Virus record (IMG/VR): IMGVR_UViG_2724679542_000005
Origin: a virus
Lineage: Duplodnaviria > Heunggongvirae > Uroviricota > Caudoviricetes
Length of the DNA stretch: 26,995 nt
Direction: 5' to 3' (one strand)
The notes under the pieces were generated by a model that worked only from the letters and a program-made list of their open reading frames with translations, was not told the origin of the DNA and searched no databases. The position numbers were made by a program, and so were the translations under genes. Shown in pieces: positions 1-25,945 of this stretch. The stretch's first letter is position 1. Each line of letters begins with the position of its first letter.

Positions 1-185
1 TTCATGGCCATATCAATGATTTTCTGGTGCGTACCGGGCTGAGAGGCGGTGTAAGTGAACTGTAGTTGCCATGTTTTACGGCAATGAGAGCAGAGATAGC
101 GCTGATGTCCGGCAGTGCTTTTGCCGTTACGCACCACGCCTTCAGTAGCGGAGCAGGAAGGACATCTGATGGAAATGGAAGCCAC
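1..185 (-). CDS. insA: IS1 InsA, 5' part only (GTG start at 185, gene runs off the window)
   Basis: Mirror image of the right-hand insA (26500-26775); same 55-nt offset from the IS1 end; GTG start inferred by symmetry. Confidence 0.8.
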
Positions 186-240
186 GCAAGCACCTTAAAA
201 TCACCATCATACACTAAATCAGTAAGTTGGCAGCATTACC
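1..240 (-). mobile_element. IS1 insertion sequence, partial (cut by window start); terminal inverted repeat ends at 240
   Basis: Reverse complement of 218-240 is the IS1 terminal repeat (ggtaatgctgccaacttactgat); region 1-240 is the reverse complement of 26445-26684, judged from identical ORF-track translations. Confidence 0.9.
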
Positions 241-260
241 CTTTATGCCATGTCCTTATT

Positions 261-289
261 GACCCCGTATATTACGGGGTCGTTTTTGT
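261..289 (+). terminator. Hairpin gaccccgta/tacggggtc followed by GTTTTTGTG; candidate intrinsic terminator just outside IS1
   Basis: Perfect 9-bp inverted repeat with a 3-nt loop and a T-run, seen directly. Confidence 0.4.
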
Positions 290-606
290 GCGGAATTAAA
301 AACGATATCCTGCTGAGAACATAAACACCCACGGATCGAGGCGTACGCTATCATGTTGCTGTGCACCGCCCAGCTTATAATTGGCGGTGGTATCGATATC
401 CATGTACCAGACTGACATGTTTTAAAAAATGCAATAAGACATTGTATCTGAAAGAAAAAACAGGATTTTGAGGCGCTTTTTTATACCGTTTTTCCGTGTT
501 TTTAACTGCCTGATTTTATTGAAATCTTTTTTAGTTTTGCAGAAAGGATTTTTTGCTCGATCGCTTTAATTTTATACATTCCTGATAACGGAAATTTTTT
601 TGCCCG

Positions 607-636
607 TTGACAGTTTTTGTTCTCCGGGGCTATATT
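607..636 (+). promoter_or_regulatory. Candidate sigma70 promoter, TTGACA (607-612), 18-nt spacer, TATATT (631-636)
   Basis: Consensus -35 and near-consensus -10 hexamers seen directly; about 240 nt upstream of the rha start. Confidence 0.4.
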
Positions 637-878
637 CCTCACACAACCGCAAAATCGGTTGTCGGGATTGGCGTCTCGGATAACATCACAACGCATAGCC
701 GCGTTTGCGGTTTTTTTTGCGTTAAGCATTGCCACATTCGCATTATGGTGGGGCGTGCAGGGGCGGAGAAATCCGCGCCGGGTTTTGTGATGACCGGTTA
801 CGCCAACCCTGTACGTCTCACCACCTCCCTGATTGGCGTCAGAGGTGGTGATCATCCAATTAATTGGAGTCATCACAT

Positions 879-1436
879 ATGAATACAGCTATAACTTTTT
901 CTAACGAGTCACCAAAAGTCTTTTTCAAAGATGGTCGCCTGGTTACCACCTCTCAAGCTGTTGCCGACTACTTCGATAAACAACATAAACACGTTTTAGC
1001 TAAGATTGACACACTCGACTGCTCTCCCGAATTTACATCAGCCAACTTTTCGGCCGATGTTCAGACTGTCGAAATTGGCAACGGCGCAGAACGTGAATCA
1101 CGATGCTACCTGATCACAAAAGACGGCTTCATGTTCCTCGTAATGGGATTTACTGGCAAAAAAGCAGCCAGACTAAAAGAAGCTTACATTGAAAAATTTA
1201 ACGCAATGGAAGAAGAACTCCACAAACGTCCTCCTGCAGCACAAAACTCCCCCGCCCCAAATAATGGATGCGCATTACTGATCCACTTCGATAAACACGG
1301 TCAGGTCGAGTTCACAGAAAAAGTCCCCGCCGATGCGATGGTATGCACGCTGGAACGGTTTAAATTTTATCTGGAGCAACATGGGTGGATCGTTGCCCGT
1401 AAAGAACAATTGGTGGAAAGGTTGATGCGGTTTTAA
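879..1436 (+). CDS. rha: Phage regulatory protein, Rha family (N-terminal Rha domain, unrecognised C-terminal half)
   Basis: ORF track 864-1436; ATG at 879 with GGAG 9 nt upstream. Rha-family motifs FDKQHKHVLAKIDTL and YLITKDGFMFLVMGFTGKKAARLKEAYIEKFNAMEEEL recognised from memory of that family. Confidence 0.75.
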   Translation: MNTAITFSNESPKVFFKDGRLVTTSQAVADYFDKQHKHVLAKIDTLDCSPEFTSANFSADVQTVEIGNGAERESRCYLITKDGFMFLVMGFTGKKAARLKEAYIEKFNAMEEELHKRPPAAQNSPAPNNGCALLIHFDKHGQVEFTEKVPADAMVCTLERFKFYLEQHGWIVARKEQLVERLMRF

Positions 1437-1445
1437 TGAATGCAA

Positions 1446-1476
1446 AACCCCGGATGATCACCGGGGTTAATTTTAT
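1446..1476. terminator. Bidirectional hairpin terminator (aaccccgg / ccggggtt) between convergent rha and the small minus-strand ORF
   Basis: 8-bp GC-rich stem with 7-nt loop; T-run on the plus strand and TTTTG on the minus strand. Confidence 0.5.
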
Positions 1477-1562
1477 CGAGCGTGATTGCCGCTAATCGCC
1501 ATCGCTCTGATTGAGCGTAAATCATTCAGGTTATTCAGTTCTTCCTTCTGCTCTCGCTGACG

Positions 1563-1733
1563 TCAATAAATCCCATCATTGCGATCAACCTCATCCTTAA
1601 CCATTGATGCGAGCAGTTCTTCCAGTTTCTGCGCTGACAGCTTTACCTGGTGATCTTCAGCATCTTCCCGGGCTATTGTGGTTCGCGCAGTGGCTGATTT
1701 TGCTGACATCACCACAGGGGGCAGACGGACCAT
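1563..1733 (-). CDS. Hypothetical small acidic protein (56 aa, or 48 aa from the ATG at 1709)
   Basis: Part of ORF-track ORF 1563-1844; start chosen at 1733 where GGAGG lies about 10 nt upstream; no recognisable domain. Confidence 0.3.
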   Translation of the reverse strand: MVRLPPVVMSAKSATARTTIAREDAEDHQVKLSAQKLEELLASMVKDEVDRNDGIY

Positions 1734-1797
1734 TGAACCATGGCCTCCGGAACAAATAAGGGCAAAAATAACAACCACTATCGAAAGCTCACAAACT

Positions 1798-2013
1798 AAC
1801 CGCAGCACGTTCCTGCATACGACGTGTCTGCGGCATAATCCCAATGATTACTCCCTGACAGGATTTGCAGGCCACTCAATATCAGGTGCAGTTGATGTAT
1901 CAACACGATTCAACAATACCCGATATTTATTCCATGCCTCCAGCAACGATCTTTCTTCCTCCGTTGCGATTTCCAGATCTACAGCATCCTGCAGTGGCGC
2001 AATATACTCACTG
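1798..2013. repeat. Direct repeat copy A (~216 bp): tfa 3' end plus downstream hairpin
   Basis: About 90% identical by eye to 2848-3062, including the ccgcagcacgt...acgtg(t)ctgcgg hairpin and the tfa C-terminal coding sequence. Confidence 0.85.
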
Positions 2014-2117
2014 AATTCCTGGATGTAGAACTGTGTGGTGACGGTCTTCCAGCCATTCGGCTCCTGCTGTATCGAAGCATACCAGGCTATTTCAATATCG
2101 CTATGCTGCGGCAGCAT
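1848..2117 (-). pseudogene. Tail fibre assembly gene fragment (C-terminal ~55 aa near-identical to Tfa, diverged N-terminal part, no full-length gene)
   Basis: ORF-track 89-aa product ends ...[51 protein letters not shown], almost identical to the Tfa C-terminus at 2897-3481. Confidence 0.7.
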
Positions 2118-2144
2118 TTAACCCCTTGTAATTCATCGCCATAA

Positions 2145-2173
2145 TTGATTTAATTCACAAATAAAACTATAAC
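2145..2173 (+). promoter_or_regulatory. Candidate sigma70 promoter for the methyltransferase gene, TTGATT-N17-TATAAC
   Basis: Hexamers seen directly; the -10 ends only 12 nt before the ATG at 2186, implying a very short leader. Confidence 0.3.
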
Positions 2174-2185
2174 ACGGTGAAATCA

Positions 2186-2842
2186 ATGAAAAAAAACACA
2201 GATGATGGGGCTAAAATTTACACACCACTTACCCTAAAGCTTTATGACTGGTGGGTTTTGGGAGTATCAAATCGGCTTGCATGGGGATGTCCTACAAAGG
2301 AACACCTTCTTCCACACTTTCTGGAACATGTAGGTAACAACCATCTGGATATTGGTGTTGGAACTGGGTTTTACCTTACTCACGTACCTGAGAGTAGTCT
2401 GATATCTTTAATGGATTTGAACGAAGCTAGCCTGAACGCGGCATCTACAAGGGCTGGGGAATCAAAAATTAAACATAAAATTAGCCATGATGTTTTTGAA
2501 CCTTATCCCGCGGCGTTACATGGTCAATTTGATTCCATTTCCATGTTTTACCTTCTTCACTGCCTGCCTGGAAATATATCTACAAAAAGCTGTGTAATAC
2601 GCAATGCGGCGCAGGCCTTAACTGACGATGGAACTCTATACGGAGCCACAATTCTTGGCGATGGAGTTGTGCACAATAGCTTCGGTCAAAAACTGATGCG
2701 CATTTACAATCAGAAAGGCATCTTTTCAAACACAAAAGATTCCGAAGAAGGCTTAACACATATACTCTCAGAGCATTTCGAGAATGTTAAAACCAAGGTT
2801 CAAGGTACTGTAGTAATGTTTTCCGCTTCAGGGAAAAAATAG
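2186..2842 (+). CDS. Putative class I SAM-dependent methyltransferase (low-GC cargo gene; substrate unknown)
   Basis: ORF track 2177-2842 (GTG); ATG at 2186. Glycine-rich SAM-binding motif I LDIGVGTG; no DPPY/NPPY or PC-type DNA methyltransferase motifs. Lower GC than the structural genes by eye. Arrangement recalls tfaD-ybcY-tfaX of the E. coli K-12 DLP12 prophage (from memory). Confidence 0.7.
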   Translation: MKKNTDDGAKIYTPLTLKLYDWWVLGVSNRLAWGCPTKEHLLPHFLEHVGNNHLDIGVGTGFYLTHVPESSLISLMDLNEASLNAASTRAGESKIKHKISHDVFEPYPAALHGQFDSISMFYLLHCLPGNISTKSCVIRNAAQALTDDGTLYGATILGDGVVHNSFGQKLMRIYNQKGIFSNTKDSEEGLTHILSEHFENVKTKVQGTVVMFSASGKK

Positions 2843-2847
2843 CATCC

Positions 2848-3062
2848 AACCGCAGCACGTTCTTGCTTAAGACGTGCTGCGGCATAATCCCAATGATTAC
2901 TCCCTGACAGGGTTCGTAGGCCACTCAATATCAGGTGCAGTTGATGTATCAACACGGTTCAGCAACACCCGATATTTTTTCCAGGCTTCCAGCAATGAGG
3001 TTTCTTCCTCCGTTGCGATTTCCAGATCTACAGCATCCTGAAGTGGCGCAATATGCTCACTG
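2848..3062. repeat. Direct repeat copy B (~215 bp): 3' end of intact tfa plus downstream hairpin
   Basis: See copy A. Confidence 0.85.
2850..2882. terminator. Long hairpin (ccgcagcacgt ... acgtgctgcgg) between the methyltransferase stop and the tfa stop; possible bidirectional terminator
   Basis: 11-bp perfect inverted repeat seen directly; the T-run on the minus strand is about 10 nt away, so termination efficiency is uncertain. Confidence 0.4.
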
Positions 3063-3481
3063 GCTACCTGCATCAGGCTGTTTTTTGTTTCTTCCGCCTC
3101 CCGGATCCGGAACAGTTTTTCTGCTTCTGCATCTTTCACCCAGGCTGTGCCGTTCCACTTCTGAAACTCCCCTTCCGGCGATAACCAGGTAACATTTTCC
3201 GGTAACGGACCGAGTTCAGAAATAAATAACGCGTCCCCTGACGCTACGTCATAAACCGTTTTACCCCGATGGTCTTCAACGAGATGCCACGATGCCTCAT
3301 CACTGTTGAAAACAGCCACGAAGCCTGCCGGAATATCTGGCGGTGCAATATCGGTACTGTTTGCTGGCAGACCTGTATGAGGCGGAATATATGCATCACC
3401 TTCACCAATAAATTCATTAGTTCCGGCCAGCAGATTATAAATTTTTATGGTCCGTGGTTGTTCACTCATTCTGAATGCCAT
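2897..3481 (-). CDS. tfa: Tail fibre assembly protein Tfa
   Basis: 194-aa ORF-track product matches lambda Tfa from memory; start ATG overlaps the stf stop (TAATG). Confidence 0.9.
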
Positions 3482-6400
3482 TATGCAAGCCTCACAATAT
3501 AGTTAAATGCGATGTTTTTGACGGTGTTTTCCGCGTTACCAGCAGCGTTAACGGTGATGGTATGTCCATGTGAACCAATCGCAACGGAGTGCGTATGAGC
3601 ACCAATACCGACAGTATGTGCGTGTGCACCTGCGCTTGCAGCAGTACCCGATACAGAGTGCGTATGAGCGCCTGCAGAAGAAGTGTTAACACTGTATTTA
3701 GAATAATCAGGTGATCCACTTCCCGGAGCACCACTGGAACCACCTGAAACAAATGTCATCGAATGGGTATGTGCACCGGCTGAAGCAGCCGTACCGCTAA
3801 CACTATGGGTATGCGCACCAGTGTTATTCGTGGATTTAGTGCCGTAATCAAACGACGATGTGGTTTTCGTCCCCAAATCCGTACTGGATACGCTGGCGCT
3901 GTGGGTGTGTGATTTAATGCCGTCCTGTTCCTGAGACAATACGGCTCGATCACTGGCGGGCTTGCCCTTAATCGTCCAGCCACGCATATCAGGGATCACG
4001 CCTGACGGATAAGCGGCTGCAAGTTTCGGGTAAGCAGATTTGTCAAAAGTCTGCCCCTGCATCAGGGCATAACCAGACGGAACGGTATCTGATGGCCACG
4101 GGATTGGTGCACCGACTGGATAAAACTCTGCAGGAGGATGAGCCGAGGTGTAAAGCTGCGCCCACGGCGACCAGTTTGCGTCGGTCGTATCCCGTCGTGA
4201 ACGAATAAATGCCGGAGCATGAGCACCGCTTGTACCACTCCAGCCGATGAGTAACTCACCTTCGCCAACGGCTGTCATCCCTTTCAGGTGAATGATATTT
4301 CCATACGCTGTTGGATATCCGTTGTTATACACCTCGTATAACTCAAGACCTGTTGCCCCCTGCGTATTGTCTGTCAGCGCGGTTACCCGACCTTTTGAAG
4401 ACAGATTAACTGATGATACTGCTGTTCCACCTGACGGTAACGCCCCGATCTCTGATGCCGTTGGCTTATTTCTGGAGTTATAGTCCCTTCGCCAGCCAGG
4501 TGAATAATCTGTTCCGTGATTAATATAGGTAAACTGGGCGTTAGTTGTTCCACCACCAGTGGAGGTGGTCGGTGTGGTAATGCGGATCGTCATCGCTGAC
4601 TTTATCCCCATTACTTCAATGACAGCTCCGGCGAGATGAATATTACCGCAGCCAGTATCAGTAATGATTTTATTATTGCCATAAGACCAGGAACCCTTGC
4701 ACATCCAGTATGGATGGTTAAATGCTCCCTGAGAATCCAGCCACTCGATAAACTGTGCAGTCGTCCAGTTTCCTGTTGTTGTGCTTACTGACCCACCGAA
4801 GGCACGGCAGGCACCAATATTTTTCGTAAAGGTGTCTTTGCCAGGGATATCCGCACCGTTCTGATCTTTCTGCAGACGTTTCTCAGCATTGTCATTGGCT
4901 GCTTTTACTGCCTTTGGCGTTGCCGCCAGCGTTTCAGACGTGCTGTTGGTCGCGCTGCTTAGCTGGATTATCCCTTTCTGTGCTGTCGTTGCATCCTGTG
5001 CGGTGTATTTCCCGTTAGCCAGGTCATACGCGGCCTTAACGGCTTTTGGCGTTGCCGCCAGTGACTCGGAAGTGCTGTTGGTCGCACTGCTGAGCTGTAC
5101 TATCCCCTTTTTCGTCGTGCTCGCATCCTCAAGCGCCACGGCGGATGCAATATCCTCTGCCCGTTTTGCCGCTGTCTCGGCGCGCGTTGCTGCAGATTCC
5201 GCCGTACTTTTGCTCTGAGCTGCCGCCGTCGCACTGCCAGCTGCCTCTGTCGCCTTCGTGGATGCCGTCGTGGCGCTACCCTTCGCTGCTGACGCCTGTC
5301 TGGTCGCCTCATCTTTTGAAGCAGACGCCGATGAGGCCGATGACGACGCCGAACTGGCTGACGATGCGGCAGCCGTTTTTGAGGATTCTGCGCTGGTTTC
5401 CGACGCTTTCGCGTTCGTTTCGGATGTCTTCGCTGCGGAAGCAGACCTCGCTGCTGCGCTGGCCTGTTCAGTGGCTTCGCCAGCCTTCGTTGTGGCTGTT
5501 GAAGCAGACGATGCGGCGCTTTCTGCCGATTTTCCGGCGGCGGTGGCACTGGCTGAGGCCTGCCCGGCACTTGTTGACGCTGCACTGGCAGACGACGCAG
5601 CCGCTGTTTTTGAGCCTGCCGCAGCCGAGGCGCTCTGTCCCGCTGCCGTTTCAGAAGACCTGGCGTTCGTCTCTGACGTTTTTGCCGCCTTCGCGGAATT
5701 TCCTGCCGCTGTTGCCGAGGAAGCTGCGCTACTGGCGCTCGAGGATGCGTTCGTTTCTGATGATTTTGCCGCCTCTTTTGAAGCCGCCGCATCCCGGGCT
5801 GAGGTGGCAGCTTCTGACGCTTTCGTAGTCGCGGTGGATGCAGAAGTGGCTGCTGATTGTTGTGACGCTGCAGCATTCGTTTCTGACGTTTTCGCGGCAC
5901 TGGCACTGGTAGCTGCCGCGCTTTTTGAGGACTCTGCAGCGGCAGCACTTTTTGATGCTTCAGTGGCCTTTGTTGATGCCGTTCCTGCGCTGGAAGTCGC
6001 TGACTGAGCCGACGACGCGGCCTGTCCGGCTGACGTGCTGGCTGCGCGTGCTGAGCCTGCAGCATCAGTCGCATGGGTTGCCGCCTCACGGGCTGATGTG
6101 CTGGCATCACTGGCTGACTTCTTCGCGGCTGCCGTGTTCTGTGCCACCACGGACGCGTTACGCGCCACCTCTTCCACCATCAGCTCAAAACGGCGCAGTG
6201 CCTCCGGACGGGCATCATCCTCCGTCATGGCACCGAGAAAATCATTCAGCGTACCGGGTCGGGAATCTTCATACACGGTGATGGTCCCGGCATGTGACGG
6301 CGGGAATCCTTCCACCAACAGAATAACGCTGTACTGACCGTACTCAACGTCCATGCTGTAACGCCCGGCTTCATCCGGATTTTCAGATGCCAGCGTGTTC

Positions 6401-6504
6401 ACCACCACCGTGGTACTGTTACGTTTTGCTTTCAGCTGGATTGTGCAGTTCTGTACCGGTTTTCCTGTGCCGTCTTTCAGTACACCTGAAATTTTTACTG
6501 CCAT
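3481..6504 (-). CDS. stf: Side tail fibre protein Stf (1007 aa, mosaic; intact reading frame)
   Basis: ORF track 3481-6510; ATG at 6504 gives [26 protein letters not shown]..., the lambda Stf N-terminus; C-terminus ...[31 protein letters not shown] with GAHTHS-type His repeats. Confidence 0.9.
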
Positions 6505-6514
6505 ATTCACCCCA

Positions 6515-6541
6515 CAAAAAAGCCCGCCTGAACCGGCGGGC
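6515..6541 (-). terminator. Intrinsic terminator after lom (gcccgcc stem followed by T6 on the minus strand)
   Basis: 7-bp GC stem and T-run seen directly, 28 nt past the lom stop. Confidence 0.6.
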
Positions 6542-6568
6542 TGTCATAACACTGTGTTACCTGGCTAA

Positions 6569-7168
6569 TCAGAATTTATAACCAACACCCACGATGAACC
6601 CGTCAGTGCGCCAGTCACCACTGCCGGAGCCTTCATAAGCGACATCAATGGCCACGGATTCGGTCGGGTTAAACTGCACGCCAGCTCCCCACGCCAGAGA
6701 CGTGTTGCTGTGGCGACCGTCATCACTTCCGGTCAGCACATCGTGCTTTTTCCCCTTGTTGTCAGTTACGCGGAGATAATCCCCGGAGAAAGTCGACACA
6801 CGGCTGTAAGCCACACCCGCCATCGCATACGCGCTGAACCATTCATTCACGCGCACAGACGGCCCCGCCATTACGCTGAACCAGCGGTTACGAACGGAAT
6901 CTTCATGCCAGCGGGTATCGCTGTAACGGGTAATCTGGCGATTCTTGTCTCCTGCATAGCTGAACGACGTCACCATCCCCAGTGTGTCCGTAAACTCATA
7001 ACGGTATTTCACGTTAATCCCGTTCAGATCATCACTGCCGGGAACGTTCGTCCGGGCATGAAGATACCCCGCGCTCAGCGTGGACTGATGTTCAGACGCC
7101 CATGCAGGCGCACCGGATACGGCCAGACAAATGGCTGCGGACAAAATGGCGGCATAAAGTTTACGCAT
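6569..7168 (-). CDS. lom: Outer membrane protein Lom (Ail/OmpX/PagC family moron)
   Basis: 199-aa ORF with signal-peptide-like N-terminus and C-terminal ...GVGYKF; matches lambda Lom from memory; GAGAGG ribosome-binding site upstream. Confidence 0.9.
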
Positions 7169-7190
7169 AATTACCTCTCGCTTTTCTGCA

Positions 7191-7216
7191 ATAAAAAAGG
7201 CGTCATTTCTGACGCC
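7191..7216 (-). terminator. Intrinsic terminator between J and lom (ggcgtca stem, T6 on the minus strand)
   Basis: Hairpin and T-run seen directly, 19 nt past the J stop. Confidence 0.6.
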
Positions 7217-7234: not shown

Positions 7235-10636
<3,402 letters not shown>

Positions 10637-25399: not shown

Positions 25400-25425
<26 letters not shown>

Positions 25426-25945
25426 TCAGCAACCCCGGTATCAGTTCATCCAGCGCGGCTGCTTTGTTCATGGCTTTGATGATATCCCGTTTCAGGAAAT
25501 CAACATGTCGGTTTTCCAGTTCCGGAAAACGCCGCTGCACCGACAGGGGGATCCCGTCGAGAATACTGGCAATTTCACCTGCGATCCGCGACAGCACGAA
25601 AGTACAGAATGCGGTTTCCACCACTTCAGCTGAGTCTCTGGCATTCTTCAGTTCCTGTGCGTCGGCCTGCGCACGCGTAAGTCGATGGCGTTCGTACTCA
25701 ATAGTCCCTGGCTGGAGATCTGCCTCGCTGGCCTGGCGCAGTTCTTCAACCTCCCGGCGCAGCTTTTCGTTCTCAATTTCAGCATCCCTTTCGGCATACC
25801 ATTTTATAACGGCGGCAGAGTCATAAAGCACCTCATTACCCTTGCCACCGCCTCGCAGAACGGGCATTCCCTGTTCCTGCCAGTTCTGAATGGTACGGAT
25901 ACTCGCACCGAAAATGTCAGCCAGCTGCTTTTTGTTGACTTCCAT
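25400..25945 (-). CDS. nu1: Terminase small subunit Nu1 (181 aa)
   Basis: MEVNKKQLADIFGASIRTIQNWQEQGMPVL... matches lambda Nu1; 26-nt overlap with A; starts 177 nt from cosN as in lambda. Confidence 0.95.

Follow-up and report, generated by a model that had tools for sequence, protein, structure and literature searches.

Mosaic tail fibres have been recognised across lambda, Mu, P1, P2 and T4 since the early 1990s. The side tail fibre (Stf) of Ur-lambda is a trimer, present as four fibres per virion, that makes adsorption faster; its residues 1-91 (StfN) form a dodecameric collar and residues 102-393 of lambda Stf form a coiled coil (PMC12617516). Functional chimeras of lambda Stf have been obtained by fusion at R393 and S528 (PMC11338833). 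The family of gp37/lambda-type receptor-binding domains with their chaperones, which diverges in the tip-loop region, has already been described (Magaziner & Salmond 2022, PMC9659904), and the host-range mutations known in T4 gp37 include G938V, T939I, V941E, G943S, Y953 and A955E (PMC5221442).

The DNA analysed here (the window) is a stretch of 26,995 nucleotides from a virus of the Caudoviricetes (IMG/VR record IMGVR_UViG_2724679542_000005). The stf coding sequence lies at 3481..6504 on the minus strand and encodes 1007 amino acids plus the stop, as judged from the ORF list, the translation and Pfam. The ATG is at 6504 and the stop at 3483-3481, and the plus-strand translation of 3481-6504 is full of stops. 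This confirmed the intact 1007-codon frame reported in the first-pass annotation, which had given no strand. Translation from 6504 starts with MAVKISGVL, the same as lambda Stf; an in-frame GTG is found 6 nt upstream of the ATG. Pfam recognised phage_tail_N, two copies of Phage_fiber_2 and Collar in the protein. All coordinates below refer to features on the minus strand.

The genes are arranged in the order J (1132 aa), lom, stf and tfa; Pfam recognised J, Lom and Caudo_TAP among them, and the order of the ORFs around stf is that of lambda (J02459). From nu1 to tfa the late operon consists of long ORFs of lambda-like sizes, with individual checks made on Nu1, J, Lom, Stf and Tfa. Judged by gene order and similarity, stf sits in a lambdoid late operon and belongs to the lambda-type Stf/StfR family. 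The tail fibre assembly chaperone gene, tfa (2897..3481; 194 aa; Pfam Caudo_TAP, E 3.2e-45), follows directly, its ATG overlapping the stf stop (TAATG). Tfa shared 95% identity with lambda Tfa, 29% with T4 gp38 and, over 65 aa, 28% with D108 U'. In the gap between lom and stf, a consensus scan and the sequence itself gave a putative terminator hairpin (6521..6542), 16 nt upstream of the stf ATG.

The N-terminal tail-attachment domain (aa 1-134; 6103..6504) matched Pfam PF08400 with E 1.4e-71, and aa 1-94 matched a chain of the Ur-lambda tail cryo-EM structure (9E7M_Ta) with E 1.3e-51. The similarity of the N-terminus to lambda Stf noticed in the first-pass annotation was borne out: against the intact 774-aa version of lambda Stf (KT232076), the 25-aa bins of aa 1-125 were each 88-100% identical, and aa 1-352 as a whole 81%. 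Next comes a shaft rich in Ala, Ser and Thr (aa 135-455; 5140..6102), homologous to the proximal coiled coil of lambda; the composition of aa 120-455 is 37.5% A, 24.7% S and 12.5% T. The shaft was 96-100% identical per 25-aa bin to that of StfR of the Rac prophage (E. coli K-12, 1120 aa), and 80-96% identical to that of lambda up to aa ~300. At this point an extra segment (aa 304-408; 5281..5595) carries a third KTSETNA unit, as located by MAFFT alignment and motif positions. It is common to StfR and missing from lambda Stf, where blastn left a gap between lambda nt 909 and 899-1156.

The shaft is followed by two Phage_fiber_2 repeats (aa 459-494 and 503-538; 4891..5129; Pfam PF03406, two stretches). 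In the alignments the second repeat was a 44-aa insertion (aa 494-537) present in neither StfR, which has one repeat, nor lambda, which also has one. The duplication is visible at the nucleotide level as a 107-nt direct repeat of 77% identity with a spacing of 132 nt; Tandem Repeats Finder gave no meaningful tandem array in stf, the duplication showing only as this direct repeat. Stf is 233 aa longer than lambda Stf (1007 - 774), close to the earlier estimate of about 230, and the extra length includes the ~105 aa of shaft found in StfR and the 44 aa of the second repeat.

Compared with Rac stfR, the gene was 96% identical to gene nt 1482 and 87% to nt 1661, gave no match over nt 1662-2350, and was 89.7% identical thereafter. 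StfR shares the region of aa 1-553, including the 105-aa extra shaft, and on the 96% nucleotide identity of gene nt 1-1482 the backbone of Stf is nearer Rac StfR than lambda. The central region of StfR, from aa 522 to ~895 (~375 aa), is unrelated to the ~237 aa that stand in its place here. In lambda the hinge and distal domain (lambda aa ~394-528) are likewise replaced here by this central cassette, in which two modules, A and B, were distinguished.

Module A (aa 554-685; 4450..4845) contains three cysteines and is of the Mu S'/P1 S'/P2 type. The cysteines of the whole protein are C20, C566, C602 and C619, and the Cys segment singled out earlier (GACRAFGG...YWMCKGSW) was indeed present, at aa 564-606. 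Its assignment to K-12 prophage fibres, on the other hand, did not hold: StfR is without it, StfQ has kept no more of the central region than its final ~84 aa, and sequence alignments of module A with StfR and lambda Stf showed no similarity. Its relatives were the variable S' parts of the myophages Mu/D108 and P1, plus a P2-type H protein, with identities of 76-92% to P1 Sv', 72-88% to P2-like H and 68-84% to D108 S'. In structural terms, aa 539-695 matched chain positions 178-334 of PDB 8JU3 (Mu S') with E 5e-69. No match to 8JU3 was obtained past chain position ~334, so that the C-terminal half (~335-488) is without a counterpart in this Stf.

Module B (aa 686-790; 4135..4449) is of the P1 Sv' type, 60-80% identical to P1 Sv' aa 47-153, and is predicted to be a small, all-beta, knob-like domain. 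P1 Sv' aa 47-153 correspond to aa 682-787 here, and P1 Sv' aa 168-358 to aa 501-687; P1 Sv' therefore carries the two modules in the reverse order. A PDB sequence search with module B gave nothing at E up to 10, and modules A and B scanned separately gave no Pfam match; over aa 540-800 Pfam gave only a sub-threshold Gp34_trimer (19.2 bits; cut-off 27). A homologue search with module B alone returned mainly short E. coli fragments of little diversity. The AF2 monomer of aa 540-800 was unusable (pLDDT 54, pTM 0.36), and Foldseek re-found only 8JU3 with it. Module B modelled as aa 676-800 had an overall pLDDT of 67.5, with 76-85 in the core, and its Foldseek neighbours were the T4 gp34 C-terminus, R-pyocin fibres and 8JU3, all at E >= 0.057 and suggestive at most.

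The GC content was 46.7% in module A and ~62% in the shaft. A foreign origin was considered from this profile, and the profile was not decisive, as the contrast mostly reflects the content of Ala codons.

The distal part starts with the collar domain (aa 795-850; 3955..4122; Pfam PF07484, E 6.8e-12), which aligned with the collar of T4 gp37 (2XGF) and with the short tail fibre 9CUY. The first half of the needle (aa 851-914; 3763..3954), defined by alignment to T4 gp37, carries HxH motifs 1-3 (H866, H898 and H912), corresponding one to one with T4 883, 915 and 929. It leads to a hypervariable tip loop of 32 residues (aa 915-946; 3667..3762) equivalent to the T4 gp37 head domain. The second half of the needle and the C-terminus (aa 947-1007; 3484..3666) carry HxH 4-7 and were placed by the 2XGF match and the T4 gp37 alignment. 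Taken together, aa 794-1007 matched 2XGF with E 4.9e-86 and 69% identity to the T4 gp37 tip. The seven HxH motifs, at aa 866, 898, 912, 947, 961, 970 and 979, aligned one to one with those at T4 883-998 and are predicted to be iron sites along the needle.

The His-rich C-terminal block, including its last 11 residues, resembled that of lambda Stf, as had been noted, with 80-100% identity over the last ~57 aa; over the whole of aa 795-1007 the identity to lambda Stf was 67% with gaps. From aa 951 on, identity per bin was 96-100% with StfR, 80-100% with lambda and 64-100% with T4. Rac StfR has a collar and needle 92-100% identical to those here and likewise seven HxH motifs, with a different tip loop of 36 aa. 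Lambda Stf shares the anchor, collar, needle and operon position, and differs in having one more FDYGTK unit, eight HxH motifs instead of seven, and a tip loop of 45 aa. T4 gp37 and gp38 show the same layout of collar, needle and head, with the HxH motifs in register and the chaperone gene directly downstream; the chaperone here is of the lambda Tfa type, whereas that of T4 is gp38, and the gp37-type tip sits here on a siphophage side fibre instead of a myophage long tail fibre. As far as these alignments go, the distal part is a T4 gp37/lambda-type tip with a downstream chaperone of the Tfa/gp38 type.

The tip loop was the least conserved part relative to all the relatives (32-68% identity in the bins of aa 901-950). 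Lying between HxH-3 and HxH-4, it aligned with T4 gp37 aa 932-965 at only ~32% identity, and was 32-40% identical to the loops of lambda and T4. The T4 gp37 host-range mutation sites fall in the region aligned with it. Because it aligns with the head domain that is the site of these mutations, the tip loop is the likely host-range part, and specificity is likely set by these 32 residues rather than by the central module. For host-range prediction, the loop is the first candidate. By analogy, the receptor would most likely be an OmpC-type porin and/or the LPS core. Lambda Stf binds OmpC; OmpC binding by this Stf would be an extrapolation, its tip loop being unlike that of lambda or T4, and for a related lambda-like Stf, that of Gifsy-1, the receptor is instead galactose of the LPS core (PMC12312913).

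Compared with any characterised fibre, Stf is a mosaic of Rac StfR-like, Mu/P1/P2-type, P1-type and T4 gp37/lambda-type parts, and the exchange points could be mapped, as had been proposed, by alignment with lambda Stf and the K-12 prophage fibres. The identical tip loop was found on a 1116-aa StfR-type fibre in strain SH19PTE6, and the same central cassette was found with four other tip loops, in SPF_0923, mEp460, AP027902 and the K-12 StfQ remnant. Tip loop and cassette therefore reassort independently of each other among E. coli prophages. StfQ begins at the position aligned with aa 707 and can be recognised as a truncated remnant of this fibre type; its tip loop is the same as that of AP027902.

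The mosaic probably arose by homologous recombination at short conserved linkers. The left linker would be the Phage_fiber_2 repeat with its KDQNGADIP motif, and the right one the start of the collar, where YTS/(Y/F) precedes a further 11 residues; tip loops could be exchanged through the flanking HxH repeats. The lambda chimera fusion points R393 and S528 are the same two junctions as the natural ones here. One lambdoid fibre contains three separately exchangeable units, namely shaft length, central knob cassette and tip loop, which is of use for annotation and, with natural junctions coinciding with engineered fusions, for fibre engineering.

Stf was identical over 1007/1007 aa to RefSeq WP_024195673.1, a 'phage tail protein' of the Qin-site lambdoid prophage of MLI104K1 and many other strains, and of 5,426 complete E. 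coli genomes, 638 carried at least 80% of the gene. The fibre of Salmonella phage SPF_0923 was collinear over its full length at about 95.5-96% amino acid identity, and those of mEp460_ev081 and PhiR26_1 were also collinear, at ~97.5% nucleotide identity over 95% of the gene. All four have the same J-lom-stf-tfa context as the window, and the phage fibres differ chiefly in the tip loop, of 33 or 48 aa against 32 aa here. Collinearity with a single known Stf over the whole length, named in the first-pass annotation as the result that would refute its reading, was therefore found. This indicated that the mosaic is old and widespread; the fibre is an ordinary one, already known, and not the product of an event particular to the window. 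Current understanding is unchallenged by it.

In our reading, the product of stf is very probably a functional, homotrimeric side tail fibre that is put together from interchangeable modules and belongs to a lambda-like siphophage or prophage. Homology to the solved Ur-lambda structure shows that aa 1 to ~95 attach it to the tail, immediately above the tip; trimer assembly, four fibres per virion and faster adsorption are likewise expected by homology to Ur-lambda. The Ala/Ser shaft, ~105 aa longer than that of lambda, the two Phage_fiber_2 repeats and modules A and B would push the distal end outward, the two modules being presumably structural only. As shown by 69% identity to the gp37 tip of known structure, the distal 213 aa form a gp37-type collar, a six-stranded needle, predicted to be iron-stapled, and a small head. 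The head, made by the 32-aa loop, may make a reversible first contact with an outer-membrane receptor, and this contact may speed up adsorption before J meets its own receptor, as in lambda and T4. Folding and trimerisation of the tip would need Tfa, translationally coupled to stf, as suggested by lambda Tfa and T4 gp38. The gene is likely in use, as many genomes carry it intact and nearly unchanged, and so do sequenced phage records, laboratory E. coli strains such as K-12 MG1655 being given as hosts in some of the latter. Literature searches found no experimental work on this stf allele; those on mEp460 gave one unrelated correction notice, those on PhiR26 unrelated Pseudomonas phage papers, and the sole paper mentioning 8JU3 cites it in passing.

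Alternatively, modules A and B, taken from those parts of Mu S' and P1 S' that vary and determine host range, might form a second, lateral receptor-binding site, perhaps for LPS core or O-antigen sugars, which would give a bivalent fibre with its host range set by the cassette and not by the tip. This was the reading implied in the first-pass annotation, and we consider it improbable. The start of module A coincides with that of the annotated variable S' fragment in D108 (Mu-like), and in P1 the module falls inside the variable part (Sv') of the C segment; modules A and B are exchanged as one block relative to StfR; and the Foldseek neighbours of module B include the C-terminal regions of R-pyocin fibres (6CL5 and 6CL6), as this reading would have it, but these matches are below significance. 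The receptor-binding region of a fibre is expected at the distal end, and the corresponding C-terminal half of Mu S' is the part lacking here, while a full gp37-type tip with its own hypervariable loop comes after the cassette. Moreover, module A is 72-92% conserved among fibres with unrelated distal ends (gp37_C, the Mu S' C-terminus, P2-type and collar/needle), which suits a structural adaptor and not a specificity determinant. The exchange of fibre modules stands, with the central module less likely than the tip loop to set host range. A variant, also unlikely, is that A and B are 'bead' domains whose order does not matter (A-B here, B-repeat-A in P1 S') and that one or other provides a lateral carbohydrate-binding site, making the fibre bivalent through tip and shaft knob; if true, the cassette would add a layer of host range now ignored when the gp37-type tip alone is considered.

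That stf is instead an unexpressed or non-functional prophage relic with no present role in adsorption, comparable to K-12 StfQ with its truncation or to lambda PaPa with its frameshift in stf, is very improbable. In many cases E. coli carries this fibre type in truncated or pseudogene form (for example K-12 stfQ, P15-25 and Z1323HEC0011), the hairpin lies just upstream, and lambda side fibres speed adsorption yet leave plaque titres unchanged (PMC12617516), but the frame here is intact, the late operon shows as long ORFs of lambda-like sizes, the best matches are 99.7-99.8% identical in nucleotides with the protein 100% identical in MLI104K1, and the same gene occurs in sequenced phage records. 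Late transcription in lambda is Q-antiterminated, and the hairpin need not stop expression of stf.

The S' fibres of Mu/D108 and P1 that share module A (and, for P1 Sv', module B) are encoded in the invertible G and C segments. A relic invertible segment at this locus was considered, as relatives carry pinQ/pinR, and rejected: no inverted repeats of at least 30 nt were present in window 1-7200, and a gix/cix/pix scan near stf/tfa gave a lone core-like match, inside the methyltransferase ORF and at chance frequency. The left-end ORFs examined were Rha, a methyltransferase, a tfa fragment and two others without Pfam match, with no recombinase or invertase among them. Unlike Mu and P1 S', this Stf has no invertible segment, crossover site, invertase, distal receptor-binding half or U'-type chaperone, the last being replaced by a lambda-type Tfa. 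Related prophages carry pinQ downstream; in MLI104K1 the fibre gene is followed by a 191-aa TfaQ and pinQ, whereas in the window the 194-aa Tfa is followed by a methyltransferase moron.

The side tail fibre gene (stf) was an open frame on the minus strand, running from an ATG at 6504 to a stop at 3483–3481 and encoding 1007 aa. The translation of the plus strand of 3481–6504 was riddled with stops. The first-pass annotation was right about the 1007-codon frame, once the strand was corrected to minus. Comparison with the intact 774-aa lambda Stf also bore out the lambda-like N-terminus and His-rich C-terminus that it had described, and put the extra length at 233 aa; the Cys-containing segment that it quoted lay at aa 564–606. 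The gene belonged to a minus-strand late operon of lambda type, which started at nu1 (25400–25945) and extended by way of J (7235–10633) and lom (6569–7168) to stf (3481–6504) and tfa (2897–3481). The start of tfa overlapped the stf stop (TAATG), and Tfa was 95% identical to lambda Tfa.

Pfam recognized phage_tail_N (aa 1–134), two Phage_fiber_2 repeats, the Collar domain (aa 798–845) and, weakly, Phage_fiber; aa ~550–795 had no Pfam match above threshold. A sequence search of the PDB placed four parts of the fibre on solved structures: aa 1–94 on the virion tail fibre chain of Ur-lambda (9E7M, E 1.3e-51), aa 490–568 on the Mu S constant part (5YVQ, E 6.2e-16), aa 539–695 on the Mu S/S' fibre (8JU3, E 5e-69) and aa 794–1007 on the receptor-binding tip of T4 gp37 (2XGF, E 4.9e-86).

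The mosaic was mapped by identity in 25-aa bins against nine references, with blastn for the junctions. Aa 1–494 resembled StfR of the Rac prophage (96.1% nt identity), and a shaft stretch of 105 aa (aa 304–408) had no counterpart in lambda Stf. Aa 494–537 formed a further Phage_fiber_2 repeat that neither StfR nor lambda has. Its nearest relative was a P2-type H protein, and the P2-type gene matched without a break across the repeats and module A (gene nt 1376–2048, 77%). Similarity to StfR stopped after ...KDQNGADIP (aa ~553) and came back at ...YTS (aa ~784). The block replaced relative to StfR (aa 554–784) consisted of two modules. Module A (aa 554–685) was 76–92% identical to P1 Sv', 72–88% to a P2-like H protein and 68–84% to D108 S'; module B (aa 686–790) matched P1 Sv' only among the nine references (60–80%). 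The collar and needle (aa 795–1007) were 92–100% identical to StfR, 80–100% to lambda and 64–100% to T4 gp37, except at aa ~901–950.

The order in the window fibre (4135–4997) was repeat, A, B. In P1 Sv' (L008, 3362–4919), on the other hand, the B homologue (aa 47–153) lay upstream of the Phage_fiber_2 repeat and the A homologue (aa 168–358), and the order was thus permuted. Judged from these sequences, such fibre domains can apparently change their order, besides being swapped. Both natural junctions, checked on the lambda Stf alignment, coincided with R393 and S528, the fusion points of functional engineered lambda Stf chimeras (PMC11338833). This supported a reading of these linkers as sites that tolerate exchange. 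Membership in the Mu/P1 invertible-segment system was rejected, as inverted repeats (of at least 30 nt, in window 1–7200), a crossover site, an invertase (among the left-end ORFs examined) and a U'-type chaperone were all not found.

Seven HxH motifs (aa 866, 898, 912, 947, 961, 970 and 979) corresponded one-to-one with the seven in T4 gp37, whereas lambda has eight. The 32 residues from HxH-3 to HxH-4 (tip loop, aa 915–946) aligned with T4 aa 932–965, the head domain, where host-range and receptor mutations are located (G938V, T939I, V941E, G943S, Y953 and A955E; PMC5221442). The loop had the lowest conservation of any stretch, even between otherwise near-identical fibres. This pattern agrees with two published accounts: a family of gp37/lambda-type receptor-binding domains with Tfa/gp38-type chaperones, divergent in the tip-loop region, has been described (PMC9659904), and OmpC-specific T-even phages have extensive allelic variation in this tip subdomain (bioRxiv 10.64898/2026.04.02.716166).

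The identical tip loop was found on an StfR-type fibre of 1116 aa in E. coli SH19PTE6. The central cassette (modules A and B) was paired with other loops in SPF_0923 (33 aa), mEp460 (48 aa) and AP027902 (49 aa), as well as in the StfQ remnant of K-12, which shares its 49-aa loop with AP027902. StfQ of the Qin prophage (320 aa; MG1655, L012 4886–5848) aligned with aa 707–1007 except for its own loop, and by this alignment stfQ is a 5'-truncated remnant of the window fibre type. An intact version occupied the stfQ chromosomal site in strain MLI104K1, where the Qin site carries a lambdoid prophage whose fibre (RefSeq WP_024195673.1) was 100% identical to the window Stf. At a coverage of at least 80%, the tip allele was present in 619, the cassette in 800 and the whole gene in 638 of 5,426 complete E. 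coli genomes. Counting the best-matching place per record, identity was at least 99% in 150 records. Collinear genes were present in SPF_0923, mEp460_ev081, PhiR26_1 and other sequenced phages.

The module exchange proposed by the first-pass annotation held in part: the fibre was confirmed as a mosaic against characterised reference fibres. At the database level it was collinear with a single known fibre, because of the identical RefSeq protein and the collinear phage genes. The fibre is not new: the allele is common and already catalogued, and the mosaic family to which it belongs is well known.

In Ur-lambda, the N-terminal domain is part of a dodecameric collar on the tail, and an Ala/Ser-rich proximal coiled coil is followed by a hinge and a distal domain (PMC12617516). 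By homology, the N-terminal domain here would join such a collar, and the Ala/Ser-rich region would form a proximal coiled coil longer than that of lambda. The lambda hinge and distal domain give way here to the additional repeat, module A and module B. We read the two modules as structural spacers. The homologue of module A is solved in the Mu fibre structure. The model of module B was a small beta domain, with pLDDT 76–85 in its core, and a structure search with this model gave fibre knob domains as all the best neighbours, with non-significant matches. A bivalent fibre, the cassette also binding a receptor, was disfavoured: module A was conserved in fibres whose distal ends are unrelated, and the Mu S' distal half was absent from the window Stf. 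Beyond the spacers, the gp37-type tip, folded with the assistance of Tfa, would make the reversible first contact. Its most likely target would be an OmpC-type porin, the LPS core or both; this is an extrapolation, because the loop was unlike those of lambda and T4, and Gifsy-1 Stf binds LPS core galactose (PMC12312913). That stf is a dead relic was unlikely, with the frame intact, the operon apparently intact and the gene carried by sequenced phage records.

Between lom and stf, a strong terminator-like hairpin (6521–6542, minus strand; 8-bp stem with 7 GC pairs, and a T-run) was predicted 16 nt 5' of the stf ATG. Expression of stf and tfa would need late-operon transcripts to read through it. 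J (7235–10633, minus strand) was 89% identical to lambda J overall but strongly diverged in the receptor-binding domain at its C-terminus, starting near aa 975 (the last ~150 codons, about 7238–7700). By this sequence, the central fibre of this phage is unlikely to use LamB as lambda does.

Opposite in strand to tfa, an ORF for a class I SAM-dependent methyltransferase (2177–2842, plus strand) had the full tfa on one side and, on the other, a duplicated 3' fragment of tfa (89-aa ORF, 1848–2117, minus strand). It was flanked, within 1800–3073, by a direct repeat of ~200 nt (1828–2024 and 2877–3073, 91% identity) that took in the post-tfa hairpin. This looks like a moron that recombination inserted at the 3' end of tfa. 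Phages PhiR26_1, PhiR30_1, ev243 and 2G7b had the same downstream arrangement. Beyond the tfa fragment lay an ORF for a Rha-family regulator (864–1436, plus strand). The closest whole-context match was in E. coli EC15, where the left end adjoined an ompW fragment and trpA. This suggested that the prophage boundary is probably no more than a few hundred bases from the start of the window (within 1–860).
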